DNA of 64,000 bases, taken from the NCBI GenBank assembly GCA_027067555.1, contig JAMOVU010000191.1, forward strand, positions 6,750-70,749. Reading direction: 5' to 3'. Origin of the DNA: Candidatus Aminicenantes bacterium (lineage in GTDB: Bacteria; Acidobacteriota; Aminicenantia; JAMOAD01). The notes beneath the pieces were generated by a model, which worked only from the letters and a program-made list of their open reading frames with translations, was not told the DNA's origin and searched no databases. Below, in pieces: positions 985-14,489 of this stretch (its first letter is position 1; every line of letters starts with the position of its first letter). The position numbers and the translations under genes were made by a program.

Positions 985-1085
985 ACAGCAGAGCAGCAGG
1001 AATTAAAATGAAAAATGAAGGAGTATTATGATACGAGTCGAGCAACCTCAAGAGATAAAAAAATGATAAATGAAATTGAATATAA

Positions 1086-1366
1086 AAATCATAATTTTTG
1101 TAGGGGCGGATTCCATATCCGTCCGTTTGGATTTTATATTTATATTTTCGGGCAGAAATTGATTCTGCCCCTACGGTGTTTTCAATTGGATTGTGATGTG
1201 TTGGTTTGTTTGTATGTATCTATGATTTTTCAAACCATTCGTAGGGGCGGATTCCATATCCGTCCGTTTCGGTTTTATATTTATATTTTCGGGCAGAAAT
1301 TGATTCTGCCCCTACTACGGTGTTTTTAAATGAATTGTGATGTATTGGTTTGTTTATATTAATGTA
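1086..1366. repeat. Two tandem copies of a ~145-bp REP/REPIN-like unit (GTAGGGGCGGATTC ... GATTCTGCCCCTAC inverted termini, internal hairpin GGGCAGAAATTGATTCTGCCC, conserved tail)
   Basis: The same unit recurs at 4858, 5303-5590, 10930-11165 and 14384-14489. The termini carry the GTAG/CTAC typical of REPs. The ORF at 1015..1329 is a translation artefact of this repeat. Confidence 0.85.
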
Positions 1367-1411: not shown

Positions 1412-4400
1412 TTATGCAGCCGTAAGTTTTTCAGCTATTTGCTCTGCCTGCTCAAGCACTGTTTCAGTCGCAAGTTTTTGCATATCAGGAGGATAGCCAT
1501 ACTTCCTGAGTGTTCTTTTCACTATTACCCTTAATTTTGCCTTTGCACTTTCCCTGATTGTCCAGTCTATGGAAGCATTCTCTTTAACCTTCTGAAACAA
1601 AACCACAGCCAATTCGCGTAATTTTTCCTTTCCCATTAATTCAACAGCACTCTTATTATTTGCCACTGCAGAATAAAATGCATACTCCTCTTCACTCAAG
1701 CCCATTTCCTCAGGCTCTTTATCGGCTTTTTGTATTTCTTTTGCTACATCAATAAGCTCTTCAATGAATTGAGCAGCGGTAATTATTTTATTGTGATATC
1801 TTTTGATAGCATTTTCCAGCATTTCCATTAAAGAACGACTCTGAACTATATTTTTTCTTGCTCTGCTCTTTATCTCATCATTTAATATTTTTTTCAGAAC
1901 CTCCATTGCGATATTCTTATGTTTCATATTTTTTACTTCAAGTAAAAACTCTTCGGACAAAATCTCAATATTGGGCTTTTTTATCCCGGCAGCATCAAAT
2001 ATATCCACAACCTCATCCGATACCAAAGCTTTGTCTATTACCTGTTTTATTGTTGTCTCCAAATCAACCCTTCCCTCTTTGCCCAGAAAAGATTTTGAAT
2101 CAAATTTCACAAGGCGTGATTTCACAGCCTGAAAAAAAGCCACTTCATCCTTAACCAATAGTGCTTCCTCATGAGGTATTGCAATCGCAAATGCCTTTGA
2201 TAATGCGGTCACCTCATCTATATATCTTTTTTTGCCATTCTCCAGTCCCAGAATATGTTCTTCGGCTTCCAATATTATATTCAGCTTTCTTGATGTATCG
2301 GCTTCAAAGTACTCCCTATAATTAAAGCCGAAAAACATCTGCCTTACAATCTCCAGCTTTTCGCTCATTACCATCACTGCTTCTTCCTGAGCAATGGCAG
2401 GTTTTCCTCTTCCACCGCCATCAGCATAAAAAGATAGTGCCTCTTTCAAATCCGAAGCTATTCCCAAATAATCCACAATAAGCCCGGCCGGTTTGTCCTT
2501 GTAAACTCTATTTACCCTTGCTATAGCCTGCATCAGGGTGTGGCCCCTCATCGGTTTGTCTATATACATTGTATGCAAAGATGGCACATCAAACCCTGTA
2601 AGCCACATGTCCCTTACAATCACAAGTTTTAATTCATTCTCCGGATCTTTCATTCTGTCAGCAAGTCTTCTCCTTTGCTCTTTTGTCGTATGATATTTTG
2701 CCATCTTAGGGCCATCCGAAGATGCTGCTGTCATCACAACTTTTATAAATCCTTTGTCCAAATCATCACTATGCCACTCGGGCCTGATTTTAATTATTTC
2801 CTCATACAAATCCACAGCTATCCTTCGGGACATTGCCACAATCATGCCTTTACCATCCATCACTGACAATCTTTCCTCAAAATGCAAAACTATATCCTCA
2901 GCTATTCTTTTTATCCTATCCTTACTTCCTATCAATGCTTCCAATCTGGTCCACTTTACCTTTGCTCTCTCCGTATCAGCAAGCTCCATCCTTGCAAGAT
3001 CCTCGTCCAATTCTTTTATTAATTTTTTCCCTTCCTCCGATATTCCCACCTTTGCGAGCCTGCTCTCATAATAGATAGGCACAGTCATTTTATCCTCTAC
3101 GGATTTTGAAATATCATATACATCTATATAATTCCCAAAAACAGCCGGTGTGTTCTTATCATCTTTTTCAATCGGAGTTCCGGTAAATCCTATATATGTA
3201 GCATTTGGCAGGGCATCTCTCATATACTTTGCAAAACCATACTTGATTTCACCTGTTTCCCTATCCACTTTGCCTTTGAAACCATACTGTGTTCTGTGTG
3301 CCTCATCAGCTATTACAACAATATTACTTCTATCTGATAATTTTTCATAAACATTCCCTTCCTCAGGATGAAATTTCTGAATTGTTGTGAAAACTATACC
3401 CCCTGAAGCAACTTTCAAAAGGTCTTTCAATTCTTTCCTTGTCTGCGCCTGTCTGGGCTCCTGCCTCAAAAGTTCTTTTGAAGAAACAAAGGTTTCAAAC
3501 AATTGATCATCCAGATCATTTCTATCGGTAATTACAACAATAGTCGGATTATTCAATAATTGAATAATCTTTGCAGTGTAAAAAACCATGGAGAGAGATT
3601 TTCCGCTCCCCTGAGTATGCCAGATAACACCTGCCTTTTTGTCTCCCACCGGTTGTTCAAAGGTGCTCCTTAATCCGTAAATTTCAGGATCTATTTTTAC
3701 AAAATCATATCCCCCTCTATTGATTGCACTTGCCCTTAAAGTTTCTCTTACGGCTTTGTTGACAGCATAGTACTGGTGATAAGCGGCAATCTTTTTATCC
3801 AATTTTATTGTAATTTGCTTTGTTTTTTCATCCTCTCTGGAAGATCTGTTAAATACAATAAAATACCTCAAAAAATCAATCAATGTGGTTTTATTTAACA
3901 AACCTTTAATTAGTATCTCCATTTGATTTACAAGAGGGGAGGATTCTGCAATACCATCGGAAGATTTCCATGCCATAAATCTGTCCCATCCGGCGGACAG
4001 ACTTCCAACTTTTGCATCAAGTCCATCCGATATGATAATCATTTCATTAAAAACAAATAATGAAGGAATAGTTGCTTTGTATGTTTGAATCTGCCTGAAA
4101 GCAGACATTAATGTAGCATTTTCATCCGCAGGATTTTTCAGTTCAAATACACCAATGGGGATTCCATTTATGAATAAAACTATATCAGGCCTTTTATTTA
4201 CACCATTTTCTATCACAGTGAATTGATTTACAGCAATAAATTCATTATTTTCGGGTTTTTCAAAATCAACAAGCCATACAATATCCCCCCTTTCTTCTCC
4301 ATCCTTTCTATAAACAACCTTTACCCCTTCTGTTAACAAGCGGTGAAAATTCTCATTGTTAACCAGAAGATCGGGGGAATTAGCCCTTTGCAATTGCCTT

Positions 4401-4627
4401 AATACATCATTTATGGTGTTTTCGGGTATATCAGAATTTATTCTACGAATAGATCGAATCAATACATCATAGAGTAAGACAGTATCATAAGTATTGCGTT
4501 TTTTTACAATAGTGTTTGAGACATCCGAGTCAGGAGCAATATCAGGACCGAAAACATAATCCCATCCGAGAGATTTAAGGAGTTTTATTGCAAAATTTTC
4601 GATATCGTTTTCAATTATTTTTGACAT
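1412..4627 (-). CDS. hsdR: Type I restriction enzyme R subunit (HsdR), 1071 aa
   Basis: Typical HsdR N-terminus MSKIIENDIENFAIKLLKSLGWDY, Walker A TQGSGKSLSMVF, DEAH box VIADEAHRTQ, SF2 motifs, and a C-terminal helical domain. Confidence 0.95.
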   Translation of the reverse strand: MSKIIENDIENFAIKLLKSLGWDYVFGPDIAPDSDVSNTIVKKRNTYDTVLLYDVLIRSIRRINSDIPENTINDVLRQLQRANSPDLLVNNENFHRLLTEGVKVVYRKDGEERGDIVWLVDFEKPENNEFIAVNQFTVIENGVNKRPDIVLFINGIPIGVFELKNPADENATLMSAFRQIQTYKATIPSLFVFNEMIIISDGLDAKVGSLSAGWDRFMAWKSSDGIAESSPLVNQMEILIKGLLNKTTLIDFLRYFIVFNRSSREDEKTKQITIKLDKKIAAYHQYYAVNKAVRETLRASAINRGGYDFVKIDPEIYGLRSTFEQPVGDKKAGVIWHTQGSGKSLSMVFYTAKIIQLLNNPTIVVITDRNDLDDQLFETFVSSKELLRQEPRQAQTRKELKDLLKVASGGIVFTTIQKFHPEEGNVYEKLSDRSNIVVIADEAHRTQYGFKGKVDRETGEIKYGFAKYMRDALPNATYIGFTGTPIEKDDKNTPAVFGNYIDVYDISKSVEDKMTVPIYYESRLAKVGISEEGKKLIKELDEDLARMELADTERAKVKWTRLEALIGSKDRIKRIAEDIVLHFEERLSVMDGKGMIVAMSRRIAVDLYEEIIKIRPEWHSDDLDKGFIKVVMTAASSDGPKMAKYHTTKEQRRRLADRMKDPENELKLVIVRDMWLTGFDVPSLHTMYIDKPMRGHTLMQAIARVNRVYKDKPAGLIVDYLGIASDLKEALSFYADGGGRGKPAIAQEEAVMVMSEKLEIVRQMFFGFNYREYFEADTSRKLNIILEAEEHILGLENGKKRYIDEVTALSKAFAIAIPHEEALLVKDEVAFFQAVKSRLVKFDSKSFLGKEGRVDLETTIKQVIDKALVSDEVVDIFDAAGIKKPNIEILSEEFLLEVKNMKHKNIAMEVLKKILNDEIKSRARKNIVQSRSLMEMLENAIKRYHNKIITAAQFIEELIDVAKEIQKADKEPEEMGLSEEEYAFYSAVANNKSAVELMGKEKLRELAVVLFQKVKENASIDWTIRESAKAKLRVIVKRTLRKYGYPPDMQKLATETVLEQAEQIAEKLTAA

Positions 4628-5306
4628 AGTATTTGTCTTCCTCCCATTTTAAAGGGTTGCTAATAATGTATTCTGCGATTTTCAAATAATCCTTTTCATC
4701 CCTAATAATATGTTCATAATAATTGCGCTGCCAGATTCTTTTTTTAAATGGAGGTAAAAGGTTTTGTTTTACCATTTTTATATATTCAACCGTGGTATAT
4801 CGTTTAAATGTTTGCACGATTTTGGGCAATGATACCTTCTCGATTATTTTACCTTTCGGAGGGATGGATTCCATATCCAACCGTTTTGTTTTTATATTTA
4901 TATTCCGGGCAGAAATTGATTCTGCCCCTACGGATAATTCGATAATTTCTACAATGGCATGAAAATGGTTGGGCATTATTATATATTCATGCAATCTTGC
5001 ATTTGGAAAAATTTTCGGTATTTTCAACCAAATTTTTTCTATCATCTTTCCCGCATCATTCAAAATTATTTTATTTTCAACAATTTTACCAAACAATTCA
5101 ATCCTGCCTTGTGTACATATTGTAATATAATATAAACCCGATTGCGAATAATCATAATTTTTTAATCGGATGGAATGGCGGCGGGGGAGAGGGCGATTGT
5201 GTTTTCTGGTCATGGGAATACCTCGTTTTTGATTATTCTTTGTTTTTCCAATTTTTGCATGGGTAATTTCTGAATTACCTGTATAAAACATTTTGATTTT
5301 TTCCAT
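4611..5306 (-). CDS. REP-associated tyrosine transposase (RAYT) / IS200-family Y1 HuH transposase. It carries an in-frame REPIN insertion. The true start is probably the internal Met (MTRKHN...).
   Basis: HuH motif NHFHAIVEI, SLPKIVQTFKRYTT, and the catalytic Tyr region WQRNYYEHIIRDEKDYLKIAEYIISNP. Between EI and IPPK there is a 26-aa segment (IELSVGAESISARNINIKTKRLDMES) encoded by a REPIN copy. Confidence 0.8.
   Translation of the reverse strand: MEKIKMFYTGNSEITHAKIGKTKNNQKRGIPMTRKHNRPLPRRHSIRLKNYDYSQSGLYYITICTQGRIELFGKIVENKIILNDAGKMIEKIWLKIPKIFPNARLHEYIIMPNHFHAIVEIIELSVGAESISARNINIKTKRLDMESIPPKGKIIEKVSLPKIVQTFKRYTTVEYIKMVKQNLLPPFKKRIWQRNYYEHIIRDEKDYLKIAEYIISNPLKWEEDKYYVKNN
4858..4930. repeat. 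REPIN copy inserted inside the RAYT coding sequence (in-frame, ~26 codons)
   Basis: gGAGGGatGGATTCCATATCC...GGGCAGAAATTGATTCTGCCCCTAC matches the island repeat. The left arm is degenerate. Confidence 0.75.
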
Positions 5307-5590
5307 GATTTTTCAAACCATTCGTAGGGGCGGATTCCATATCCGACCGTTTGGGTTCCATGTTCACATTTTCGGGCAGAAATGGATTCTGCCCCTACGG
5401 TGTTTTTAAATGGATTGTGATGGGATGGTTTGTTTGTATGTAACCATGATTTTTCAAACCATTCGTAGGGGCGGATTCCATATCCGCCCATTTGGGTTTT
5501 ATATTTATATTTTAGGGCAGAAATGGATTCTGCCCCTACGGGGTTTTTAAATAAATTGTGATGTGTTGGTTTGTTTGTTTTGTTGTTATG
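5303..5590. repeat. Two tandem REPIN-like units (leader, REPIN, tail) between the RAYT and the helicase gene
   Basis: GTAGGGGCGGATTCCATATCCG...GGGCAGAAATGGATTCTGCCCCTACGG occurs twice with the conserved tail GTTTTTAAAT.GATTGTGATG.GWTGGTTTGTTTGT. The ORF at 5210..5734 is a translation artefact (VGAESISA.K...GYGIRPYEWFEKSW occurs twice). Confidence 0.85.
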
Positions 5591-5730
5591 ACAGGGTAAT
5601 TTCTTATAATTGGGTGGTTTGGGAATTGCCCTTATGGATTGGGCATTTATTATTCTTAAAAGATAAATTTTATCAATTATATTGAAATTAAAACCGTCAT
5701 TATAATATACAAACATAAAATCAAAAACTT

Positions 5731-7932
5731 TCACAAATTCCCCTTTATCTTCTCAATTTCGTATTTTAAAAAAAGATGCGGTCTTTTATTTATCAAGCTA
5801 ATAACTTCTTTTATTAATTTTTCATCATTACTTATTTCTTCTAAATTAATTTCATTTTTTATTTTTTCTATTGCTGATTTTGGAATGCCATATTCTAATA
5901 ATACAGATAATTTTTCAGGAACAAAATCATTTTCTAATAATGTTGCATAATAAGCATAGTCTCCTGCTTCCAAATTTTTCTTTTCACAAACAAATTTTTG
6001 AATATTATTGACGACATTTAACCATTTGGGAACCTTAAATTGAAACCAATGTCTGAAAATATTAAAAACATCTCTTATAGCTTCATTAAACAACTCATTG
6101 TCATTATATTTTGAGAAATAATTTTTTTCTTTATAGTATGTATAATTTGATTTTATTAAAAAAAGAATATCCTTATTAACAGTATAATCAAAAGTTACTT
6201 TTATTAGACGTTTTTTAGTCATGGGTCTAGTAGTTTCTCCTGATCTAAGTAAATTATCCCATGATAATTCTATCAAATAGCTTAGCTGTTGATAGTTTGG
6301 TATCCCATTCCAAGTTATTAAATTTTGTTTTCTCTTAATATCTTTATATAACTGTTCCAAAATCCTTTTCTGTCCCCAAACAGAAACACCGTTTTTCCTG
6401 AATAACTCTCTTTCGTCGTCAGTTAACTCACTCAATTTTTTATATTGCTCAGTATTTTTTACGATATCTTTTACATCATTTTTATGTAATGTTATTAATA
6501 CTTCATCTTCAATAGGTTTTTGCTGATAAAAAGGTATATCGATAATTAATTTTTCTTTTTTAGGTGGCGGGTTAAAATTATATATTTTCCCAATATAGTG
6601 GATCATAAAACGTCCAGCTCTGCCTTTAATATTAGAGTAATCAAAAAAATCAATAGATTTTCTATTCCCTTTGGTGTTATCAAAAAAAACGATATTTTTG
6701 GCGCTTGTATTTACACCTTCAATTAAAGTAGTAGTACAGAATAAATATTTTAGTCTTCCTTCATTAAAATAATCTACAATTGAAGAATTAATATGTTTAA
6801 TTAGTGCACCATCATTTATGCCAATACTATATTCTAAAATTTCTATTAGATTCCAATTAGTATGTACATTTTCTTTTATCCATTCAATTAATGGCAACTC
6901 ATGATCTATCTTCTTTTCTACTTCATTATTTTTTAAATAATTACAAAACTTCCATGCCAAATCTCTTACTTTTTTAGGAGAAGAACAATAAATAATAAAT
7001 TGTTCTTTTTCAGTATTCAATAACTCAAATAACACATGTTCTTTATATTGTTTCTTTTCCCCACGACTACCAAACTTTTTTTTATGTTCCAAATAGACAT
7101 CTATTATTTTTGATTCAACTAATTTGTAATCAGTTTTGTAAAATACAGCATTGTATTTTTGTGCAAAACCTTCAGAAATCCCATCTATATTTGGACCTAA
7201 TAAATAAAATTTTGGATTGTACTTTTTTAGTAATTTGTAAAATGCATTATTTAAAATATAGGCTCGCTCATCATCTCGTTTTTGGCTTAATTTATAGAAC
7301 TCATCTATAATAAGAAAATCTATTGGTGGTAAATTGGGATATTCCATTACTCGTTCCGCAGTTAATAAAAACAAATTACCTTTATCAGTAGCAGGTTCTT
7401 GTGTTGTTTTGACAATAATTTTATATCTTTCCTTGTATCTTTTTAGTTTTTTTCTAGTCTCATCCAACAAAGCTAAAGTTGGTTGTATTACCACTATATT
7501 CTTATATTTTCCGCTTGCAACAATCTCTTCGATTAATAAACTTTTGCCAAAGCTTGTAGGAGCACTAACTATTAAATTTTTATCACTTTCCAAAATATAT
7601 TTGAGTATTTTTTGCTCTTCATGAAGATAGATATTCTCTAAATTTTCTGATAAATGAAACTCCTTTCTTATTTTTCCATCTATTGTAGATGGTTCACCTC
7701 TTTCTTTTTTTAAATATGGATAAAAACCTGCCATTTCTACTATGTCAAACCAAATATCCTTAGTATGTTCAGGGATTTTTTTGAAGTTCTCTAAAATATA
7801 AATGAGTAATCTGTGACCTAAGTTTTCATTATTTCGTAATTCATTAGCACAAATTTTGGCATAGCTAAAACTTTCATCAACAGATATCGAATCTTTGCTC
7901 TCTATATTTTTTATTATCGCTTCTATATTCAT
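5731..7932 (-). CDS. SF2 (DExH-type) helicase, 733 aa. HamB-like partner of the upstream nuclease-like protein (candidate Hachiman effector).
   Basis: Motif I-like LIVSAPTSFGKSLL, motif II FLIIDEFYKL, motif V-like FCTTTLIEGVN and motif VI IKGRAGRF. There are long N- and C-terminal extensions. The start overlaps the stop of the 338-aa ORF at 7932/7933. Confidence 0.6.
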   Translation of the reverse strand: MNIEAIIKNIESKDSISVDESFSYAKICANELRNNENLGHRLLIYILENFKKIPEHTKDIWFDIVEMAGFYPYLKKERGEPSTIDGKIRKEFHLSENLENIYLHEEQKILKYILESDKNLIVSAPTSFGKSLLIEEIVASGKYKNIVVIQPTLALLDETRKKLKRYKERYKIIVKTTQEPATDKGNLFLLTAERVMEYPNLPPIDFLIIDEFYKLSQKRDDERAYILNNAFYKLLKKYNPKFYLLGPNIDGISEGFAQKYNAVFYKTDYKLVESKIIDVYLEHKKKFGSRGEKKQYKEHVLFELLNTEKEQFIIYCSSPKKVRDLAWKFCNYLKNNEVEKKIDHELPLIEWIKENVHTNWNLIEILEYSIGINDGALIKHINSSIVDYFNEGRLKYLFCTTTLIEGVNTSAKNIVFFDNTKGNRKSIDFFDYSNIKGRAGRFMIHYIGKIYNFNPPPKKEKLIIDIPFYQQKPIEDEVLITLHKNDVKDIVKNTEQYKKLSELTDDERELFRKNGVSVWGQKRILEQLYKDIKRKQNLITWNGIPNYQQLSYLIELSWDNLLRSGETTRPMTKKRLIKVTFDYTVNKDILFLIKSNYTYYKEKNYFSKYNDNELFNEAIRDVFNIFRHWFQFKVPKWLNVVNNIQKFVCEKKNLEAGDYAYYATLLENDFVPEKLSVLLEYGIPKSAIEKIKNEINLEEISNDEKLIKEVISLINKRPHLFLKYEIEKIKGNL

Positions 7933-8949
7933 TTATATCCCTTGAATCTTTGAAAGTTTCCTATGCAATTCTTTCACTAATTCGCTTTTATTAGGAACGG
8001 GGAAAAGCATTACAATAACATTTAAATCAGAATGAATAGGTTCTCCTGAATTTTTATATTTCTTTTGTAACTCTTTAAACTTATTATAGAATATTTCTTT
8101 AAGATACCTTATTTCTCTTTCATATTCTCTAATAAATTCTTCATTTTCATCATTTGTATGGTTTGAAAAGACTTCAGATGTATATGTACACAACAGAGGT
8201 ATTGTTACAGATGAAAACAAATCTTGTAATTTACCATTTTGATTTGCAACTCTGTCCAATTCATCAAACCAATATTCTTTTTGTCTTAAAAATTCTTCAT
8301 ACTGATCTTTTGTATTTAAGTCGATATACTCTTCAAGTTTCAAAAAAGCGTTTTTTTTCTTCCCAATTAGCATAAACTCTCTTTTTAAGAAATCTTTTGT
8401 AAAATGTTCTTCAATATCATTTAATAACGCTTCTACCCCTTTTTTACCGTCTTTATATAACTTAGATTCACCAAGATAAATTGAACTACAGTCAGATTTC
8501 CTTAAATTAGGTCCAATATGAATTGCATCAAAACCATGCACTGTTATACCATCAGAATCCTTAAAGTATATTTTTGATACCAAAGGAACTGTATTAATAA
8601 AATCTCGCAAGATAAGATGTAATATCAATTCACCAAACTCACCTCGTTTTAGATATTTTTCCTGAATATCATCTTCGTACTCACCATTATTTTCTAAATA
8701 TGTTTTTTTTGATTGTTTAAAAACCTCTATTTTATATAGAGATTGAGCCGCCTCTTTTAATATTTTTCTTGTATAAGTCTGTTTTATACCCTCATGAAAT
8801 CCAAAAACAAAATCCACTAAAACATCCATCAATATATTTAATAAATCATCAAGTCTATATTTACCAAAATCGAAACCAACAAAATACGCTCTAAGATCTG
8901 CTTCTGATATATGCTCGGTAATAACTTCTTCAGAACCAAAAACACTCAT
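7933..8949 (-). CDS. PD-(D/E)xK nuclease-like protein, 338 aa (HamA/DUF1837-like candidate)
   Basis: GEFGELILHLIL (helix Glu) ... HGFDAIHIG ... 17 aa ... IYLGESKLY gives the D...ExK geometry. The ORF is wedged between hsdS (4-nt overlap at 8946..8949) and the helicase, so translational coupling is likely. Confidence 0.5.
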   Translation of the reverse strand: MSVFGSEEVITEHISEADLRAYFVGFDFGKYRLDDLLNILMDVLVDFVFGFHEGIKQTYTRKILKEAAQSLYKIEVFKQSKKTYLENNGEYEDDIQEKYLKRGEFGELILHLILRDFINTVPLVSKIYFKDSDGITVHGFDAIHIGPNLRKSDCSSIYLGESKLYKDGKKGVEALLNDIEEHFTKDFLKREFMLIGKKKNAFLKLEEYIDLNTKDQYEEFLRQKEYWFDELDRVANQNGKLQDLFSSVTIPLLCTYTSEVFSNHTNDENEEFIREYEREIRYLKEIFYNKFKELQKKYKNSGEPIHSDLNVIVMLFPVPNKSELVKELHRKLSKIQGI

Positions 8950-10124
8950 ACCTTCACCCTCACCTCCCCACTCATTAATTTTGGCAATAATGTGTCGCGT
9001 AGTTTTTCTAATGTGTGGATTTGTTGTTCGTTGCTTCTGATTTTGTCTAAAAATTTTTTTACTACTGTATGAAAATACAAGGACTTCTTTTCATTAAATG
9101 AAAAGGAGAGTTCAAAAATATCTCGTGCTTTGACTCTTTGATGACTTCCACTGGTTCCGCTTGCTGCGCCAATTAACTCATTAGTTACTTGAATAGATTT
9201 TAACAAATAATAAATAAAGCTAAAGTATTCTTTCTTCTTTGGAAAAACAACTATAAATTCTGTTGAACAAACAGAGTACTCTTTATTTTCAATTTTACCC
9301 CATATTGCCCAAACTCTTGGAAGTCTTGGATTTAATTTTGAGATCAATATTGAATGCTCAAAAACTTTATATTTATTACTTTTTATTTCCATTCCCAATT
9401 CCTTTATTGGTTTTTTCCCTGCGTCAAAAGCTGGAATACTAAAATGCAAGAATTCTATCTCCGGATCTTTGTTAGGCACAATATTTACTTTTTTATGTTC
9501 TGCAATCTCAAATAGCTGCTTCTCCTCCCAATCCTCCTCCGCCTCTTCTATAAACCATTTTCTAAATAGAGTTTCTGCCATGGCTTCTAATGTTTTGTTT
9601 TGGCGGTGGAGGAGATCTATTTTGTCATCAAGGGAGGAGAGGACAGAGGCAATGGCGCGTTGTTCGTCAATTGATTCTGGGATTATCCATTCTGTTTTTT
9701 TCATAAAATTCCATTCGGCTCTTGGCATTCTAGTTCCTGATGCTCCTTTTGTTGCTAAGTCTATAAATTCGTAAGTTGCAAATAAGTAAAACAAAAAATT
9801 TTTATCCGTATTTTCTTTGGGTGCAACTACCCAAATATCAGTAGAACAAATCCCTTTAAACTTAGGATTGTACAATTTCCTAAAATATGGTCTTAATTTA
9901 CCAAATAAAAACTCTTCTTCAGTGAAAATATATTTATTACTTTTAATATCATCCGAAAAACCAATAGTTTTTAATCTTAAAGAAGATTCCTCTATGTGTT
10001 CTAAACCTATATACGGTAATTTTTCATTACCAACTTTCCACGCTCTCTTTAATACCTGTGCTATTTCTTCTAATTTTACTTTTTTCCAACCTTTTAGCAT
10101 TCTTTCATCCATTCTCTGCACCAC
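8946..10124 (-). CDS. hsdS: Type I restriction-modification specificity subunit (HsdS), 392 aa, with two target-recognition domains
   Basis: Conserved central and C-terminal coiled-coil repeats LDDKIDLLHRQNKTLEAMAETLFRKWF and LDKIRSNEQQIHTLEKLRDTLLPKLMSGEVRV. Confidence 0.9.
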   Translation of the reverse strand: MVQRMDERMLKGWKKVKLEEIAQVLKRAWKVGNEKLPYIGLEHIEESSLRLKTIGFSDDIKSNKYIFTEEEFLFGKLRPYFRKLYNPKFKGICSTDIWVVAPKENTDKNFLFYLFATYEFIDLATKGASGTRMPRAEWNFMKKTEWIIPESIDEQRAIASVLSSLDDKIDLLHRQNKTLEAMAETLFRKWFIEEAEEDWEEKQLFEIAEHKKVNIVPNKDPEIEFLHFSIPAFDAGKKPIKELGMEIKSNKYKVFEHSILISKLNPRLPRVWAIWGKIENKEYSVCSTEFIVVFPKKKEYFSFIYYLLKSIQVTNELIGAASGTSGSHQRVKARDIFELSFSFNEKKSLYFHTVVKKFLDKIRSNEQQIHTLEKLRDTLLPKLMSGEVRVKV

Positions 10125-10917
10125 TTTTTATTTCCTCAACATAAGATTTTAGCCATTCGTATTTTTGTTTGACTTTCTCATCTGTACTATTTATATTTTT
10201 TTCAACTATCTCTTCTACTTCCCCTATTATTCGTTCGTAATTACTTTTACTTTCTCTGTTCCATACTATAGAAAATCTTTTATTTTCATTTATTATATTT
10301 TCTCCAATTTTACGTAACACTTTCCTATTCAATAAATCAAGAAAATAGATCCCATCCTTATCTTTTTTGATTCCATTAATAAGAAAACCATCATTTTGTT
10401 TTTCAAGAAAAGGAGATCCTTTTATGTTTTTGTTTTTAATGTATTCAACTAATTTTTCGTCAACTACAATCCTCGGATAAATAGCAATTTCGGATTCAAG
10501 TTTGTAAGCTTCTACCAAGCCAGGACCAATCAAAACATTTTCTTCTTTTTTCGGAAAATACATTTTACCTACTGTTATTGCTCCTCTGAAACAAAATCCC
10601 TTTTCCCAAAATCTATCCTGCAAATATCTGACAATCAAAAAAAGATGAGGTAAATTACGCGGCTCTTTTTTCATTATAAACGCGAAACTATCCGAAAAAT
10701 AAAAACTTCTTATATCCAAATTTCCATCTTTTGATGTTTCTTTGCTTGTAGATTTCGTAATCTTTGAATTGATTTTAATTACCTTAATTATATCTTCTAA
10801 TAACTTTTTATTTTCCCCATTTTCTATCTCTTTTAATAAATTTTTAACCCCCAAAACATCCAAATAGCATATAAAACAATCTTCTAAATTATATTCGCTC
10901 ATTTTAATTTCTCCCAT
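10105..10917 (-). CDS. Hypothetical protein of 270 aa with a class III nucleotidyl-cyclase-like palm-domain signature (possible signalling nucleotide cyclase; uncertain)
   Basis: ICYLDVLGVKNL resembles FADIVGFT. FYFSDSFAFI resembles IGDAYMAVF. FRGAITVGKMYF resembles RIGIHTGPVV. GPGLVEAYKLESE resembles GDTVNLAARLES, but the transition-state Asn/Arg are absent. The ORF overlaps the hsdS start by 20 nt. Confidence 0.35.
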   Translation of the reverse strand: MGEIKMSEYNLEDCFICYLDVLGVKNLLKEIENGENKKLLEDIIKVIKINSKITKSTSKETSKDGNLDIRSFYFSDSFAFIMKKEPRNLPHLFLIVRYLQDRFWEKGFCFRGAITVGKMYFPKKEENVLIGPGLVEAYKLESEIAIYPRIVVDEKLVEYIKNKNIKGSPFLEKQNDGFLINGIKKDKDGIYFLDLLNRKVLRKIGENIINENKRFSIVWNRESKSNYERIIGEVEEIVEKNINSTDEKVKQKYEWLKSYVEEIKSGAENG

Positions 10918-10929
10918 GTTTTGGTTTTT

Positions 10930-11165
10930 TGTTTATTTTATTTTTATATTTTCGGGCAGAAATTGATTCTGCCCCTACGGGGTTTTTAAATAAATTGTGA
11001 TGGGATGGTTTGTTTGTATGTAACCATGATTTTTTAAACCATTCGTAGGGACGGATTCCATATCCGCCCGTTTGGGTTTCATGTTCATATTTTCGGGCAG
11101 AAATAGATTCTGCCCCTACGGTATTTTCAATTGGATTGTGATGGGATGGTTTGTTTGTATCATTA
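10930..11165. repeat. About 1.5 REPIN-like units (a right-half partial copy followed by a full copy) between the cyclase-like gene and the AlbA_2 gene
   Basis: TTTTCGGGCAGAAATTGATTCTGCCCCTACGG, then the tail, then GTAGGGACGGATTCCATATCCGCCCG...CTGCCCCTACGG. The ORF at 10904..11179 is a repeat artefact. Confidence 0.85.
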
Positions 11166-11175
11166 ATTGTTTTAA

Positions 11176-12771
11176 TCATTTTTTATTTTTAACCATTTTT
11201 TCTTCTTTAATCAAAACATAAAATGCCAAACCGCGTTTAGTTAACTTGAATTTTTGTTTCGGACTGTTCAAATTATCTTTAATTGTATGCTCTATTAACT
11301 TAAAGTTATGTAGTTTTTTCAATATTTTATTTAACCCTCCGGAAATAGATTTTTGCCCCAATTCCAAAGAAATTTCTTTACGTGATTTAGGAGAATTCAA
11401 TAATATAAACAATATGCGCAAGAAAAGAGACTCTTGCTCTATCTCTTGCCTCAACTCTTGCCTCAACTCTTGCCTCAACTCTTGCTTTTCATTCTCAAGC
11501 CCGGCTTTTAGCCATCGGATAATTTCCTCGGAAAAAATTATAGATGAAGGGAATAGTTGTCCGTAATCATCTCTGGTTTTTTGTTTTTGGTCCGTAATCG
11601 TTCGTGATTGGGCATAATCGGTTTTTATGAATGTTACTCTGAATGAAAATCCGGGCTCGCTCCATTCCATCTTTATTTCCGGATATTTTTTTAATTCTTT
11701 GGAAATCAGTTTAAGCCCGTTTCCCCATTGCTCTATGATACCGAGCTTTTTAAAAACAGGTGCCAATACCTTATTTCTTATATCTGATTGACCTGATTCC
11801 ATATCATCAAAATCAATGGTAGGCATAAGCTTCCCGGGGCTTGTGATCTCTATTTTATCGTCAAATATGGCAATTTTAATATCTTTGCCTTTTAAAGAAT
11901 AATCTCTGTGAATCACTGCATTTCGTATGAGTTCACGGATTGCTACTACAGGATACTCCCACCTGTCTTTTCTGTAAACTCCCTCATATGAGGAGCCCTG
12001 AGAGATGTGCCTCAAAACAAATTTATAAGCCTCTTCCGCCTGAAAGCTCAACGGAGTTTCTATTGTTTTTTGATCTATGAATTCTCCGGGAATTTTTCCC
12101 TTGAATCTTGCACACTCTATTTTTGCATAAGGAAAAAGTCTTTTCCTGATTTCATCATTTGAAAGTAATACAAGGGCATTTGTGGGAAAATCCCTGTTCT
12201 GATCTGTGATAATCAAGTTCAGTTTTCTTAAAATTGTTTTGGTAAGCTTCTCTCCGGTGATTTCCTCAAATTGATTTCTAAATTGAGAGATGGTTAATTC
12301 ATTCGCTTCTTTTAAATGCACAAGAATAGAATCAAAGGAAATGTTTTGTTTCTGTCTTTCTAACTCTTCAATCATATCTTTGTCCGCAAGGCGGTTTGTT
12401 GAGCCGACTCGGATATAAGTTCCTTTCCATTTTCCCTTGTTTTTCAAATAATAGGGAGGATTGCTTCCTTTGTAAATTCTAACTTTTATAATATGTTTAC
12501 CTTGATAATTTACAAAAGAAATATCGGGCAGTACTATCGGATAGCAATTATCATGAATGATGTTGCTTATTTTTTCTTCCATTGAAATCAACTTTTCCTC
12601 GGAAATTCCTATGATTTTTCTTGGTTCATTTTTTATTCCTATGAAAATCTCACCTCCCGCATCATTAGCAAAAGCAACAACAGTTTTACATAAATCATTT
12701 TTTAAAGGAAGTGTTTCTTTAAATTCAAGCTTTCTTCCTTCTGGCTGTTTTAATAATTCTTCAATTTTCAT
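11176..12771 (-). CDS. AlbA_2 (Schlafen-like) plus HATPase_c_4 ATP-binding protein with a C-terminal wHTH. This is the family often annotated as a RecG-like transcriptional regulator in Type I R-M loci. 531 aa.
   Basis: [11 protein letters not shown]...[19 protein letters not shown] (AlbA_2), [14 protein letters not shown] (HATPase_c_4), and a C-terminal HTH-like segment. It contains (ELRQ)x3 encoded by a 15-bp tandem repeat at about 11440-11490. Confidence 0.75.
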
Positions 12772-14344
12772 TATCTTTTTCCGAATCAGATAAATCTATC
12801 TTTTCAAGATTTTCAAGAATCAATTTGTTTAATCTCTCTTCTTCCTTTAATTGTTCAAGAAATTCTGCCTTTAATTTTGAAAACCTTTCTTCAAAGTCAA
12901 AATCATCATCTTCTTCCGGAAGTCCGACATAACGACCCGGAGTGAGCACATAATCAAGCTCTCTTACCTCTTCTATTTTTACGGATTTGCAAAATCCCTT
13001 TACATCCTCATAGCTTTCATCTCCCCTCTGCCAATTGTGATAAGTATCAGCAATCTTTCTTATATCCTCCTCCGTTAATACACGGGTCCTTCTGTTTATA
13101 AGAGTACCCATATCTCTTGCATCTATGAAGAGAATCTCCCCTTTCCTATTTTTTTTGTTTCTGTTTAAAAACCATAAAGAGGCAGGTATCTGAGTGTTTA
13201 AAAATAGTTTTGTCGGAAGATTGACAATGCATTCGACAAGATCATTTTCAATAATATTCTTTCTTATCTCATATTCTCCTTTGCTTTTTGTGGTTAATGC
13301 TCCTTTTGCAAGAACAAAGCCAGCTCTTCCATTCGGATTCAGGTGATAGATAAAGTGTTGTATCCATGCGTAATTCGCATTTCCCACAGGGGGGACTCCG
13401 TATTTCCATCTGCCATCACTTCTGAGCAATTCTCCGCTCCAATCACTGTCATTGAAAGGAGGATTTGCTATTACAAAATCAGCTTTCAGATCTTTGTGAG
13501 CATCATTCAAAAAAGAGCCCTCAGGATTCCATTTTACCTGAGTTGAGTCAATCTGTCTTATCGCAAGGTTCATTTTACAGAGACGCCATGTAGTCTGATT
13601 ACTCTCCTGTCCGTATATTGATATGTCATCCACTTTTCCCTGATGCTCTTTTACAAATTTTTCGGATTGAACAAACATTCCGCCGGAACCGCAGCATGGG
13701 TCAAACACTCTTCCTCTGTAAGGTTCAAGCATCTCAACAAGTAGTTCAACAACACTTCGAGGAGTGTAAAATTGCCCCCCTTTTCTTCCCTCGGCAAGAG
13801 CAAATTGCCCTAAAAAATACTCGAAAACATGCCCCAAAATATCTGCACTTCTCTTTGTAGCCTCTCCCAGTGCAATATTACCTATCAAATCAATCAAACC
13901 GCCTAAAGACAGAGGATCCAGATTCCCCTTTGCATACACCTTTGGCAAAACACCTTTTAATGATGGATTTTCCTTTTCTATTATATCCATTGCATTATCC
14001 AATATCTTTCCTATTTCCGGATTTTTTGCATTATTAAGAAGGTATGACCATCTTGCTTCGGGTGGGACATAAAAAATATTTTTAGCCCTGTATTCATCTA
14101 TATCTTCGGGATCCGCCCCTTCTTCCACTTTGCTTTTTAGTTTTTCATACAGGTCTTCAAAAGCGTCTGAGATATACCGCAAAAATATTAAACCCAATAC
14201 CACATGTTTGTATTCAGCAGCATCAATATTTTTTCTTAGTTTATCCGCAGCTTTCCACAACTGTTTTTCAAGATTTTCCTCTTTTTCTTTTTTATTCATA
14301 TTGCCCTCTTTTTTTATTTTATCTTTTTTATTTGTGATTGGCAA
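12761..14344 (-). CDS. hsdM: Type I R-M N6-adenine DNA methyltransferase subunit (HsdM). The ORF begins at a TTG; the ATG ([15 protein letters not shown]) 15 codons in is the likelier start.
   Basis: HsdM N-domain [38 protein letters not shown] motif [11 protein letters not shown], and catalytic VIANPPFN. Confidence 0.93.
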
Positions 14345-14383: not shown

Positions 14384-14489
14384 TTGATGTTTTCCATGAT
14401 TTTTTAAACCCTTTGTAGGGGCGGATTCTGTATCCGACCGTTTGGATTTTATGTTCATATTTTCGGGCAGAAATGGATTCTGCCCCTAC
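14384..14489. repeat. Single REPIN-like unit at the right edge of the island
   Basis: Leader CCATGATTTTTTAAACCCTTT, then GTAGGGGCGGATTCTGTATCCGACCG...GGGCAGAAATGGATTCTGCCCCTAC. Confidence 0.85.

Follow-up and report, generated by a model that had tools for sequence, protein, structure and literature searches.

A cyclase-fold protein family inserted in type I restriction operons, with a possible role as a self-contained defence enzyme

To our knowledge, the one immune role in which class III nucleotidyl cyclases have been found is signal generation in Pycsar systems, where they are always paired with a receptor-effector gene, and PrrC is the only well-understood case of an accessory gene embedded in a restriction locus. 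Here we describe a gene, called T below, which has a predicted cyclase fold and lies inside a type I restriction (hsd) locus of a Candidatus Aminicenantes bacterium (GenBank assembly GCA_027067555.1, contig JAMOVU010000191.1, forward-strand positions 6,750 to 70,749). This whole stretch of 64,000 nucleotides is referred to as the window, and positions are counted from its first letter. An earlier note, made from the sequence of the window alone, had proposed a protein with a cyclase-like palm coupled to hsdS. PrrC, encoded within an hsd locus, is a latent effector: the restriction enzyme keeps it silent, an anti-restriction factor of the phage frees it and nucleotides tune it (PMC1484252; PMC12707154). 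Another point of comparison is the gop-beta-cII system of P4, which protects E. coli from lambda and P1 and in which Gop is toxic without beta (PMC9122126). A preprint has shown that embedding in immune operons predicts new defence genes (bioRxiv 10.1101/2024.01.29.577857).

T is a mobile accessory gene which has repeatedly been inserted co-directionally, often with overlapping stop and start codons, in restriction-type operons, chiefly between hsdM and hsdS, and it has no conserved partner able to act as a nucleotide receptor. Its product belongs to a very large unnamed family, whose members are stand-alone proteins about 260 residues long and are homologous, though diverged, to class III nucleotidyl cyclases. 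Searching protein collections gave 119 relatives, all unnamed and without a Pfam domain, and a profile search of 1.84 billion cluster representatives gave 17,553 matches at E <= 1e-3, 12,060 at E <= 1e-10 and 3,788 at E <= 1e-30. The family is spread over bacteria, archaea and plasmids, with a pairwise identity of about 20-30%, and the plasmid copies are solitary 'hypothetical proteins' among unrelated cargo, including metal-resistance and conjugation genes. Nearly all of the best 150 representatives are 220-330 residues long; no fusion to an effector domain was found among them, and the extensions of the longer ones had no Pfam match. A 600-residue protein of an uncultured Cytophagales (locus L026, 7074-8876) has a 310-residue N-terminal extension before the T domain, again without a Pfam match, and is either a fusion or an over-extended open reading frame (ORF). 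Neither T nor the family profile matched any Pfam, NCBIfam or PADLOC model or any PDB sequence, and the family is absent from the PADLOC v2 candidate models. When individual members were scanned, the most frequent weak Pfam match was PF00211 (3 of 76 members, best E 0.018), with none reaching the threshold and T itself without a match. No homologue was found by tblastn in 50,697 phage records. Our literature search gave no description of a cyclase-fold gene in hsd operons, and a cyclase is not mentioned in the main text of the embedding preprint (bioRxiv 10.1101/2024.01.29.577857).

The predicted structure strongly supports a class III cyclase homology domain (CHD) fold for T, that is, a beta-alpha-beta-beta-alpha-beta palm with the class III elaborations. 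This agrees with the palm fold that the earlier note had read from four short segments, and the nearest folds among PDB structures are class III cyclases, including three Pycsar cyclases. The four segments are present in the order in which they were quoted, ICYLDVLGV at residues 16-24, FYFSDSFAFI at 72-81, FRGAITVGKMYF at 110-121 and GPGLVEAYKLESE at 131-143, and they are not chance matches, as they are conserved in the relatives. In 257 single-domain members aligned to the family profile, the residues inside the segments were kept at high frequency: D20 in 253, G23 in 251, S75 in 254, D76 in 256, R111 and G112 in all 257, G131 in 254, A137 in 240 and E141 in 252. Further conserved positions are P148 (255 of 257), R149 (257), D188 (252), K252 (252) and W255 (248). 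For comparison with cyclases we used a profile made of a consensus of our own and four real domains (C1 and C2 of both AC8 and AC9); the consensus matches real PDB cyclases at E 3e-75. A search of the related loci for a canonical cyclase or GGDEF gene had given no cyclase for this purpose. The register given by hhalign was canonical for D20, D76 and R111 (Table 1), and it placed G131, A137 and E141-S142 on GDxVNxAxRxES and R149 on the basic residue before beta5. Both metal-binding Asp claimed in the earlier note are accordingly found at the aligned positions. Taken together, the conservation strongly supports a preserved metal-binding and phosphate-binding site, to which the family adds a new near-invariant Lys, K252.

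The transition-state Asn/Arg pair, on the other hand, is absent from T, as the earlier note had also observed, with V135 at the Asn position and K139 at the Arg position. Of the 257 members, 217 have I, V or L at position 135 and 28 have N, and position 139 varies across the family (K, E, R, Q and others). Four members (P0153, P0167, P0250 and P0255) keep both Asn and Arg in GPAMNEAYRLES, a nearly canonical form of the cyclase Asn/Arg helix motif. The retention of Asn in 28 members and of both residues in four supports common descent from canonical cyclases, and the loss of the pair in most members shows that the family function does not need it. In cyclases, the Lys four residues before the second Asp specifies adenine; at this site, position 72, T has F and the family has R, T, S, F or K. 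Because both the transition-state pair and the base-specifying Lys are missing, T probably differs from a standard adenylyl or guanylyl cyclase in its substrate or its reaction. We infer that T is enzymatically active.

Further indications of how the site may work come from four complete natural tandem fusions of two T domains (P0121, P0133, P0136 and P0141). In each of them one half is intact, with D20, G23, D76, R111 and K252, and the other is degraded (Table 1). All four degenerate halves have lost G23, three each have lost D20, D76 and K252, and two have lost R111. Both halves retain YPR147-149 in three fusions and DxDG186-189 in all four. Degeneration of one half is the pattern of pseudo-heterodimeric cyclases, in which one of the two interface sites is functional, and the loss of K252 alongside the site residues in three of the four fusions ties this Lys of the C-terminal helices to the same site. 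T would therefore work as a head-to-tail dimer and bind NTP-Mg (NTP, nucleoside triphosphate) at its interface as cyclases do. The two-CHD pseudo-heterodimers AC9 (6r3q), soluble AC (4clf) and the cyclase-like ATP-binding protein of Pseudomonas aeruginosa (6yii) differ in that T has a single domain and would need to homodimerise. Mammalian cyclase C2 domains also keep the complementary Asn/Arg set, whereas the degenerate T halves visibly do not. A search for further tandem fusions gave only two that were already known. Adjacent tandem pairs of T genes were seen in L017, L018, L025, L033 and L036, and both copies keep the key residues.

The genomic setting was studied in loci found with peptide patterns from the 38 closest sequences, taking one genome per species. 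The 67 loci obtained span many bacterial phyla and also include methanogenic archaea, and the counts below concern the 66 loci with a T gene, the window included (65 relatives). Neighbouring ORFs were called mechanically and all of them clustered, and hsd genes were labelled by iterated profile search. An hsdM, hsdS or hsdR gene was found within four genes of T in 21 of the 66 loci and directly adjacent to it in 19, the usual order being hsdM-T-hsdS. Other restriction-like arrangements were SNF2 helicase-DUF4391-T-N6_N4 methylase (L009, L012 and L013), large methylase-T-SNF2/HKD protein (L004) and a DpdE-like helicase with a large methylase upstream of T (L052), and a mad3/mad8-like protein (L010) and PifA (L056) were also seen near T. 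Fic or RhuM/Fic genes, which are usual co-tenants of the hsdM-hsdS slot, recur near T as well. Many of these loci show an overlap between the T stop codon and the start of the gene that follows, be it hsdS, hsdM, an N6_N4 methylase or beta.

The last of these belongs to an arrangement that resembles P4 gop-beta-cII in layout and orientation, with T in the place of gop. Such triads were found at L022 (7944-10670), L029 (7965-10590) and L035 (7977-10662). The Beta_protein gene (Pfam E 8e-22) is co-directional with T and overlaps it by 4-11 nucleotides, and the gene of the cII (sce7726-family) protein is convergent (PADLOC cll E 5e-15; BLASTP 2e-9 against P4 cII). Its standing in place of the toxic Gop hints that T does more than sense and may be an effector. 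Homology to Gop was considered and rejected, since the hhalign probability was 0.09% and the T proteins of the three triads had no PADLOC gop match. Gop is a protein of 133 residues and T shares only its position; the window itself has neither a beta nor a cII gene.

In the window, T lies within a type I hsd locus, which is the position of a PrrC-type guardian, in a minus-strand defence island with the order hsdM - AlbA_2 - T - hsdS - HamAB - RAYT - hsdR (Table 1). The ORF of 270 codons reported in the earlier note is real. However, the true product is most likely the 265-residue protein that starts from the second ATG (10902) and not from 10917, because GGAG is found about 8 nucleotides upstream of the second ATG, the identical (100%) database protein P0001 has 265 residues, and an independent gene call begins at the same codon. 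The coupling of T to hsdS also stands, but not in the form first described: the overlap had been placed at the start codon of T, and it is instead the stop codon of T (TGA, 10105-10107) that overlaps the start of hsdS, either ATG 10112 within ATGGATGA or GTG 10124. As T is upstream and overlaps with its 3' end, the translation of hsdS is what is coupled to T. The 5' end of T is preceded by about 260 nucleotides of repeats resembling repetitive extragenic palindromic (REP) elements, which follow the AlbA_2/HATPase_c_4 gene.

Table 1. Features of the window around T and residues of the degenerate halves of natural tandem fusions.
Feature	Position in window	Strand	Remarks
hsdM, type I methyltransferase subunit	12761-14344	-	HsdM_N and N6_Mtase on called gene; clusters with hsdM of other loci
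AlbA_2 (Schlafen-type) + HATPase_c_4 protein, co-embedded	11176-12771	-	Pfam E 5e-27 and 1e-24
REP-like repeat doublet between AlbA_2 gene and T	10946-11119	-	
T, cyclase-fold ORF, 270 codons from first ATG	10105-10917	-	Probable true start ATG 10902 (265 residues)
CHD core of T, about residues 10-220	10258-10890	-	
D20 codon, counterpart of first metal-binding Asp (FxDIxGFT motif)	10858-10860	-	hhalign register
D76 codon, counterpart of second metal-binding Asp (GD of beta2-beta3 hairpin)	10690-10692	-	
R111 codon, counterpart of phosphate-binding Arg (RxGIHxG)	10585-10587	-	hhalign register
Residues 131-143, GPGLVEAYKLESE, counterpart of GDxVNxAxR(L/M)ES	10489-10527	-	V135 for Asn, K139 for Arg
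C-terminal helix pair, residues 227-264, family-specific	10126-10239	-	Secondary structure; holds K252 (codon 10162-10164) and W255
T stop / hsdS start overlap	10105-10124	-	
hsdS, type I specificity subunit	8946-10124	-	Pfam Methylase_S, E 1.7e-19
HamA (Hachiman), downstream of hsdS	7933-8949	-	PADLOC E 1.5e-103
HamB (Hachiman)	5731-7932	-	PADLOC E 2e-234
IS200-like Y1 transposase gene (RAYT-like)	4611-5306		
hsdR, type I restriction subunit	1412-4627	-	Translation; clusters with hsdR of 12 other loci
REP-like copies	1142-1174, 1283-1315, 5366-5398, 5507-5539, 10946-10978, 11087-11119, 14457-14489	-	
P0121_N degenerate half			20 D (kept), 23 N, 76 N, 111 C, 252 A
P0133_N degenerate half			20 E, 23 D, 76 N, 111 H, 252 K (kept)
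P0136_N degenerate half			20 E, 23 N, 76 N, 111 R (kept), 252 Y
P0141_C degenerate half			20 H, 23 D, 76 D (kept), 111 R (kept), 252 Q

Compared to the class III cyclases (PF00211; for example P. aeruginosa CyaB 3r5g and Mycobacterium tuberculosis Rv1900c 1ybt and Rv1625c 7yzi), T shares the fold, the two metal Asp and the phosphate Arg. Unlike them, the T family stays below the Pfam threshold, does not conserve the Asn/Arg pair or the base-specifying Lys, adds two C-terminal helices with K252 and W255, has no sensor or membrane domains and is found in restriction operons. We have therefore filed T as a divergent sister family of the class III cyclases and not as a member of PF00211, since it falls short of the Pfam threshold and lacks the Asn/Arg pair. 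An identity with GGDEF, Cas10 palm or mCpol (Panoptes OptS) proteins was rejected, as neither a GGDEF-type hairpin motif nor a closest structural match to these proteins was obtained. The likeness to PrrC/EcoprrI is one of genomic logic only: T is likewise a single accessory gene within an hsd operon, co-expressed with restriction subunits. PrrC is composed of an ABC-ATPase-like N-domain and an anticodon-nuclease C-domain, whereas T is a CHD with two helices, without any relation in sequence or fold. In addition, unlike prrC, many members of the T family occur without any restriction system.

Of the explanations considered we rank first that T is a restriction-embedded, self-contained, NTP-converting defence enzyme, and we do so tentatively, giving it somewhat less than an even chance. 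The rank is due to embedding as a predictor of defence genes and to PrrC as a precedent for a latent effector in an hsd locus. The embedding, together with the gop position in the triads, suggests that T could act as a self-contained defence effector. T would then be a latent enzyme that converts NTPs and is expressed in step with the methyltransferase genes; once released, its activity would damage the phage or the infected cell. The restriction complex may restrain T, or T may report on that complex, as with PrrC.

It could also be that T is a true signalling cyclase of the Pycsar or other cyclic nucleotide monophosphate (cNMP) kind, but we consider this unlikely. On infection it would then make a cyclic (oligo)nucleotide, and the receptor that responds would be encoded elsewhere or be an unconventional neighbour, for example the AlbA_2/HATPase_c_4 protein, Hachiman or the restriction complex itself. 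The fold, nearest to class III cyclases with the three Pycsar enzymes among them, speaks for such a role, as do the near-invariant metal Asp pair and phosphate Arg and the minority of members that keep the canonical Asn, or Asn and Arg. AlbA_2/HATPase_c_4 does recur near T, in 3 of the 66 loci (the window, L002 at 5152-6777 and L009 at 1273-2907), although Hachiman was near T only in the window. However, a receptor is what the loci fail to provide. The earlier note had seen no effector of the cNMP-binding, TIR or transmembrane type nearby, and indeed there was none among the scanned genes of the island, and neither these nor any other effector family recurs beside T in the 66 loci. A recurrent second gene was sought by clustering of neighbours and by pooled Pfam and PADLOC scans, and none was found beyond the small beta-cII group and a small group with a Schlafen (SLFN) helicase and SIR2; among the 133 unlabelled neighbours, many of them housekeeping genes, no Pfam family was matched by more than three. 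Many copies of T are solitary, and the missing effector-domain fusions among the best representatives and the unconserved Asn/Arg pair also argue against signalling. Pycsar-like signalling by two genes, to which the earlier note had pointed, is not supported, and a Pycsar identity was rejected: no cNMP-binding effector is adjacent to T in the window or in its relatives, and the PycC models do not recognise the family (the PADLOC PycC model matched 1 of 76 members, at E 0.0024, and T had only a stray PycTM match, at E 0.004).

Equally doubtful is the explanation that T is an inactive pseudo-cyclase, a sensor which binds NTP or dNTP (deoxynucleoside triphosphate) and regulates the restriction complex or another partner by contact, comparable to 6yii or to the nucleotide-sensing N-domain of PrrC. 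Against it, the metal Asp pair, the phosphate Arg and K252 are 98-100% conserved in spite of the low pairwise identity, and the replacement of site residues in one half only of the tandem fusions is what would be expected if the site has to work once per dimer. Such conservation and one-sided loss argue at least for ligand binding and fit catalysis better than mere scaffolding. Many copies, moreover, have no restriction partner to regulate. The weakest explanation, and a very unlikely one, is that T is not immune at all. It would be mobile-element cargo or a housekeeping enzyme that chanced upon an hsdM-hsdS slot tolerant of insertions, or else a selfish module, for addiction or regulation, controlling expression of the specificity subunit. 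In its favour, about half of the loci lack a defence neighbour and include metabolic genes, plasmid copies sit amid metal-resistance and conjugation genes, and the phage records hold no homologue. Against it, the hsd linkage (21 of 66 loci) compares with a small fraction of a percent for a random gene, a rough estimate of ours based on genomes usually having one or two type I systems. T is also found inside several other restriction-like and defence operons and, in the triads, where a validated defence system has its toxin, and its patchy spread over bacteria and archaea is typical of defence genes.

Several points weigh against T as a self-contained defence enzyme. The activity, the toxicity and the phage phenotype of all members are predictions from sequence and context. 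The hhalign comparison of the family with the cyclase profile is statistically weak (E 0.003-0.02), and as most members, T included, are without the transition-state Asn/Arg pair, the family may perform cyclase chemistry slowly or not at all. Where K252 lies relative to the Asp pair is deduced solely from the four degenerate halves, three of which have lost it. The AlphaFold tandem model is of moderate confidence; it reached a predicted local distance difference test (pLDDT) value of 76 and a predicted template modelling (pTM) score of 0.69, with a shallow alignment for the N half, which rests on two sequences, and AlphaFold may favour arrangements learned from cyclases. The loci were found via three peptide patterns and are thus a biased sample, the ORF calls are crude, and the background rate for the hsd linkage is an informal estimate. 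About half of the loci have no recognisable defence neighbour, many neighbours are housekeeping genes and the plasmid copies lie amid unrelated cargo. The Gop analogy, finally, has three related triads and their gene positions as its whole basis.

The hsd locus of the window holds at least three embedded cargoes: AlbA_2/HATPase_c_4, T and Hachiman. The 'Hachiman-like pair' of the earlier note is confirmed as a pair and turns out to be a full Hachiman system, with HamA and HamB between hsdS and hsdR of one type I locus and HamA overlapping the end of hsdS by 4 nucleotides. AlbA_2/HATPase_c_4 is immediately or nearly upstream of T in 3 of the 14 closest loci, a recurrence that could reflect a shared preference for the slot or a functional pairing. 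A 33-nucleotide palindromic REP-like element (GTAGGGGCAGAATCNATTTCTGCCCGAAAATAT) is present in seven copies, against none expected by chance. The copies are mostly doublets 141 nucleotides apart, all within the defence island and adjoining the IS200-like Y1 transposase gene, and the doublets divide the hsd locus into the modules [hsdM-AlbA_2], [T-hsdS-HamA-HamB] and [RAYT-hsdR]. The ORFs at 10904-11179 (-), 5210-5734 (-) and 1015-1329 (+) are translations of these repeats and have peptides such as GAESISARKY in common. None of them is likely to be a gene, even though a public gene call includes the 91-residue ORF 10904-11179. A scan for promoters and terminators was uninformative. Among the related loci, L061-L064 (about 6007-13180; Gastranaerophilales-type) have a cluster of a Schlafen group 3 helicase, T, a 469-residue protein and a 1006-residue SIR2_2 protein, the 469-residue protein without a Pfam or PADLOC match. 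This cluster is conserved in the four related genomes and may form a multi-gene defence system of its own, with T as one component.

The huge unannotated family, its recurrent embedding in restriction operons, the half-degenerate tandem fusions and the Gop position extend what the earlier note had. The family they describe comprises at least 12,000 sequence clusters. It combines a cyclase fold and an intact site for metal and phosphate with a remodelled catalytic helix and an additional invariant Lys, and it lacks a partner gene. If T is active, either its product acts without a dedicated receptor or T itself is the effector, and either would be a new defence use of the fold. D20, D76, R111 and K252, together with the natural half-dead tandem fusions, offer ready-made mutants and controls, and judged by their motif P0153, P0167, P0250 and P0255 would be the best candidates in the family in which to look for true cyclase activity. 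Restriction-embedded accessory genes are few, and T would give this set one more case that can be tested. A bolder and rather improbable proposal is that the family is a new kind of single-protein immune enzyme on the class III cyclase fold, either a latent dimeric NTP-converting effector or a signal generator without an effector, which would be coupled physically or functionally to restriction-type complexes and would fire and abort the infection when a phage disables restriction or perturbs the nucleotide pools. Were this true, the family would be a cyclase-fold counterpart of PrrC and Gop and the first link of class III cyclase chemistry to type I restriction.

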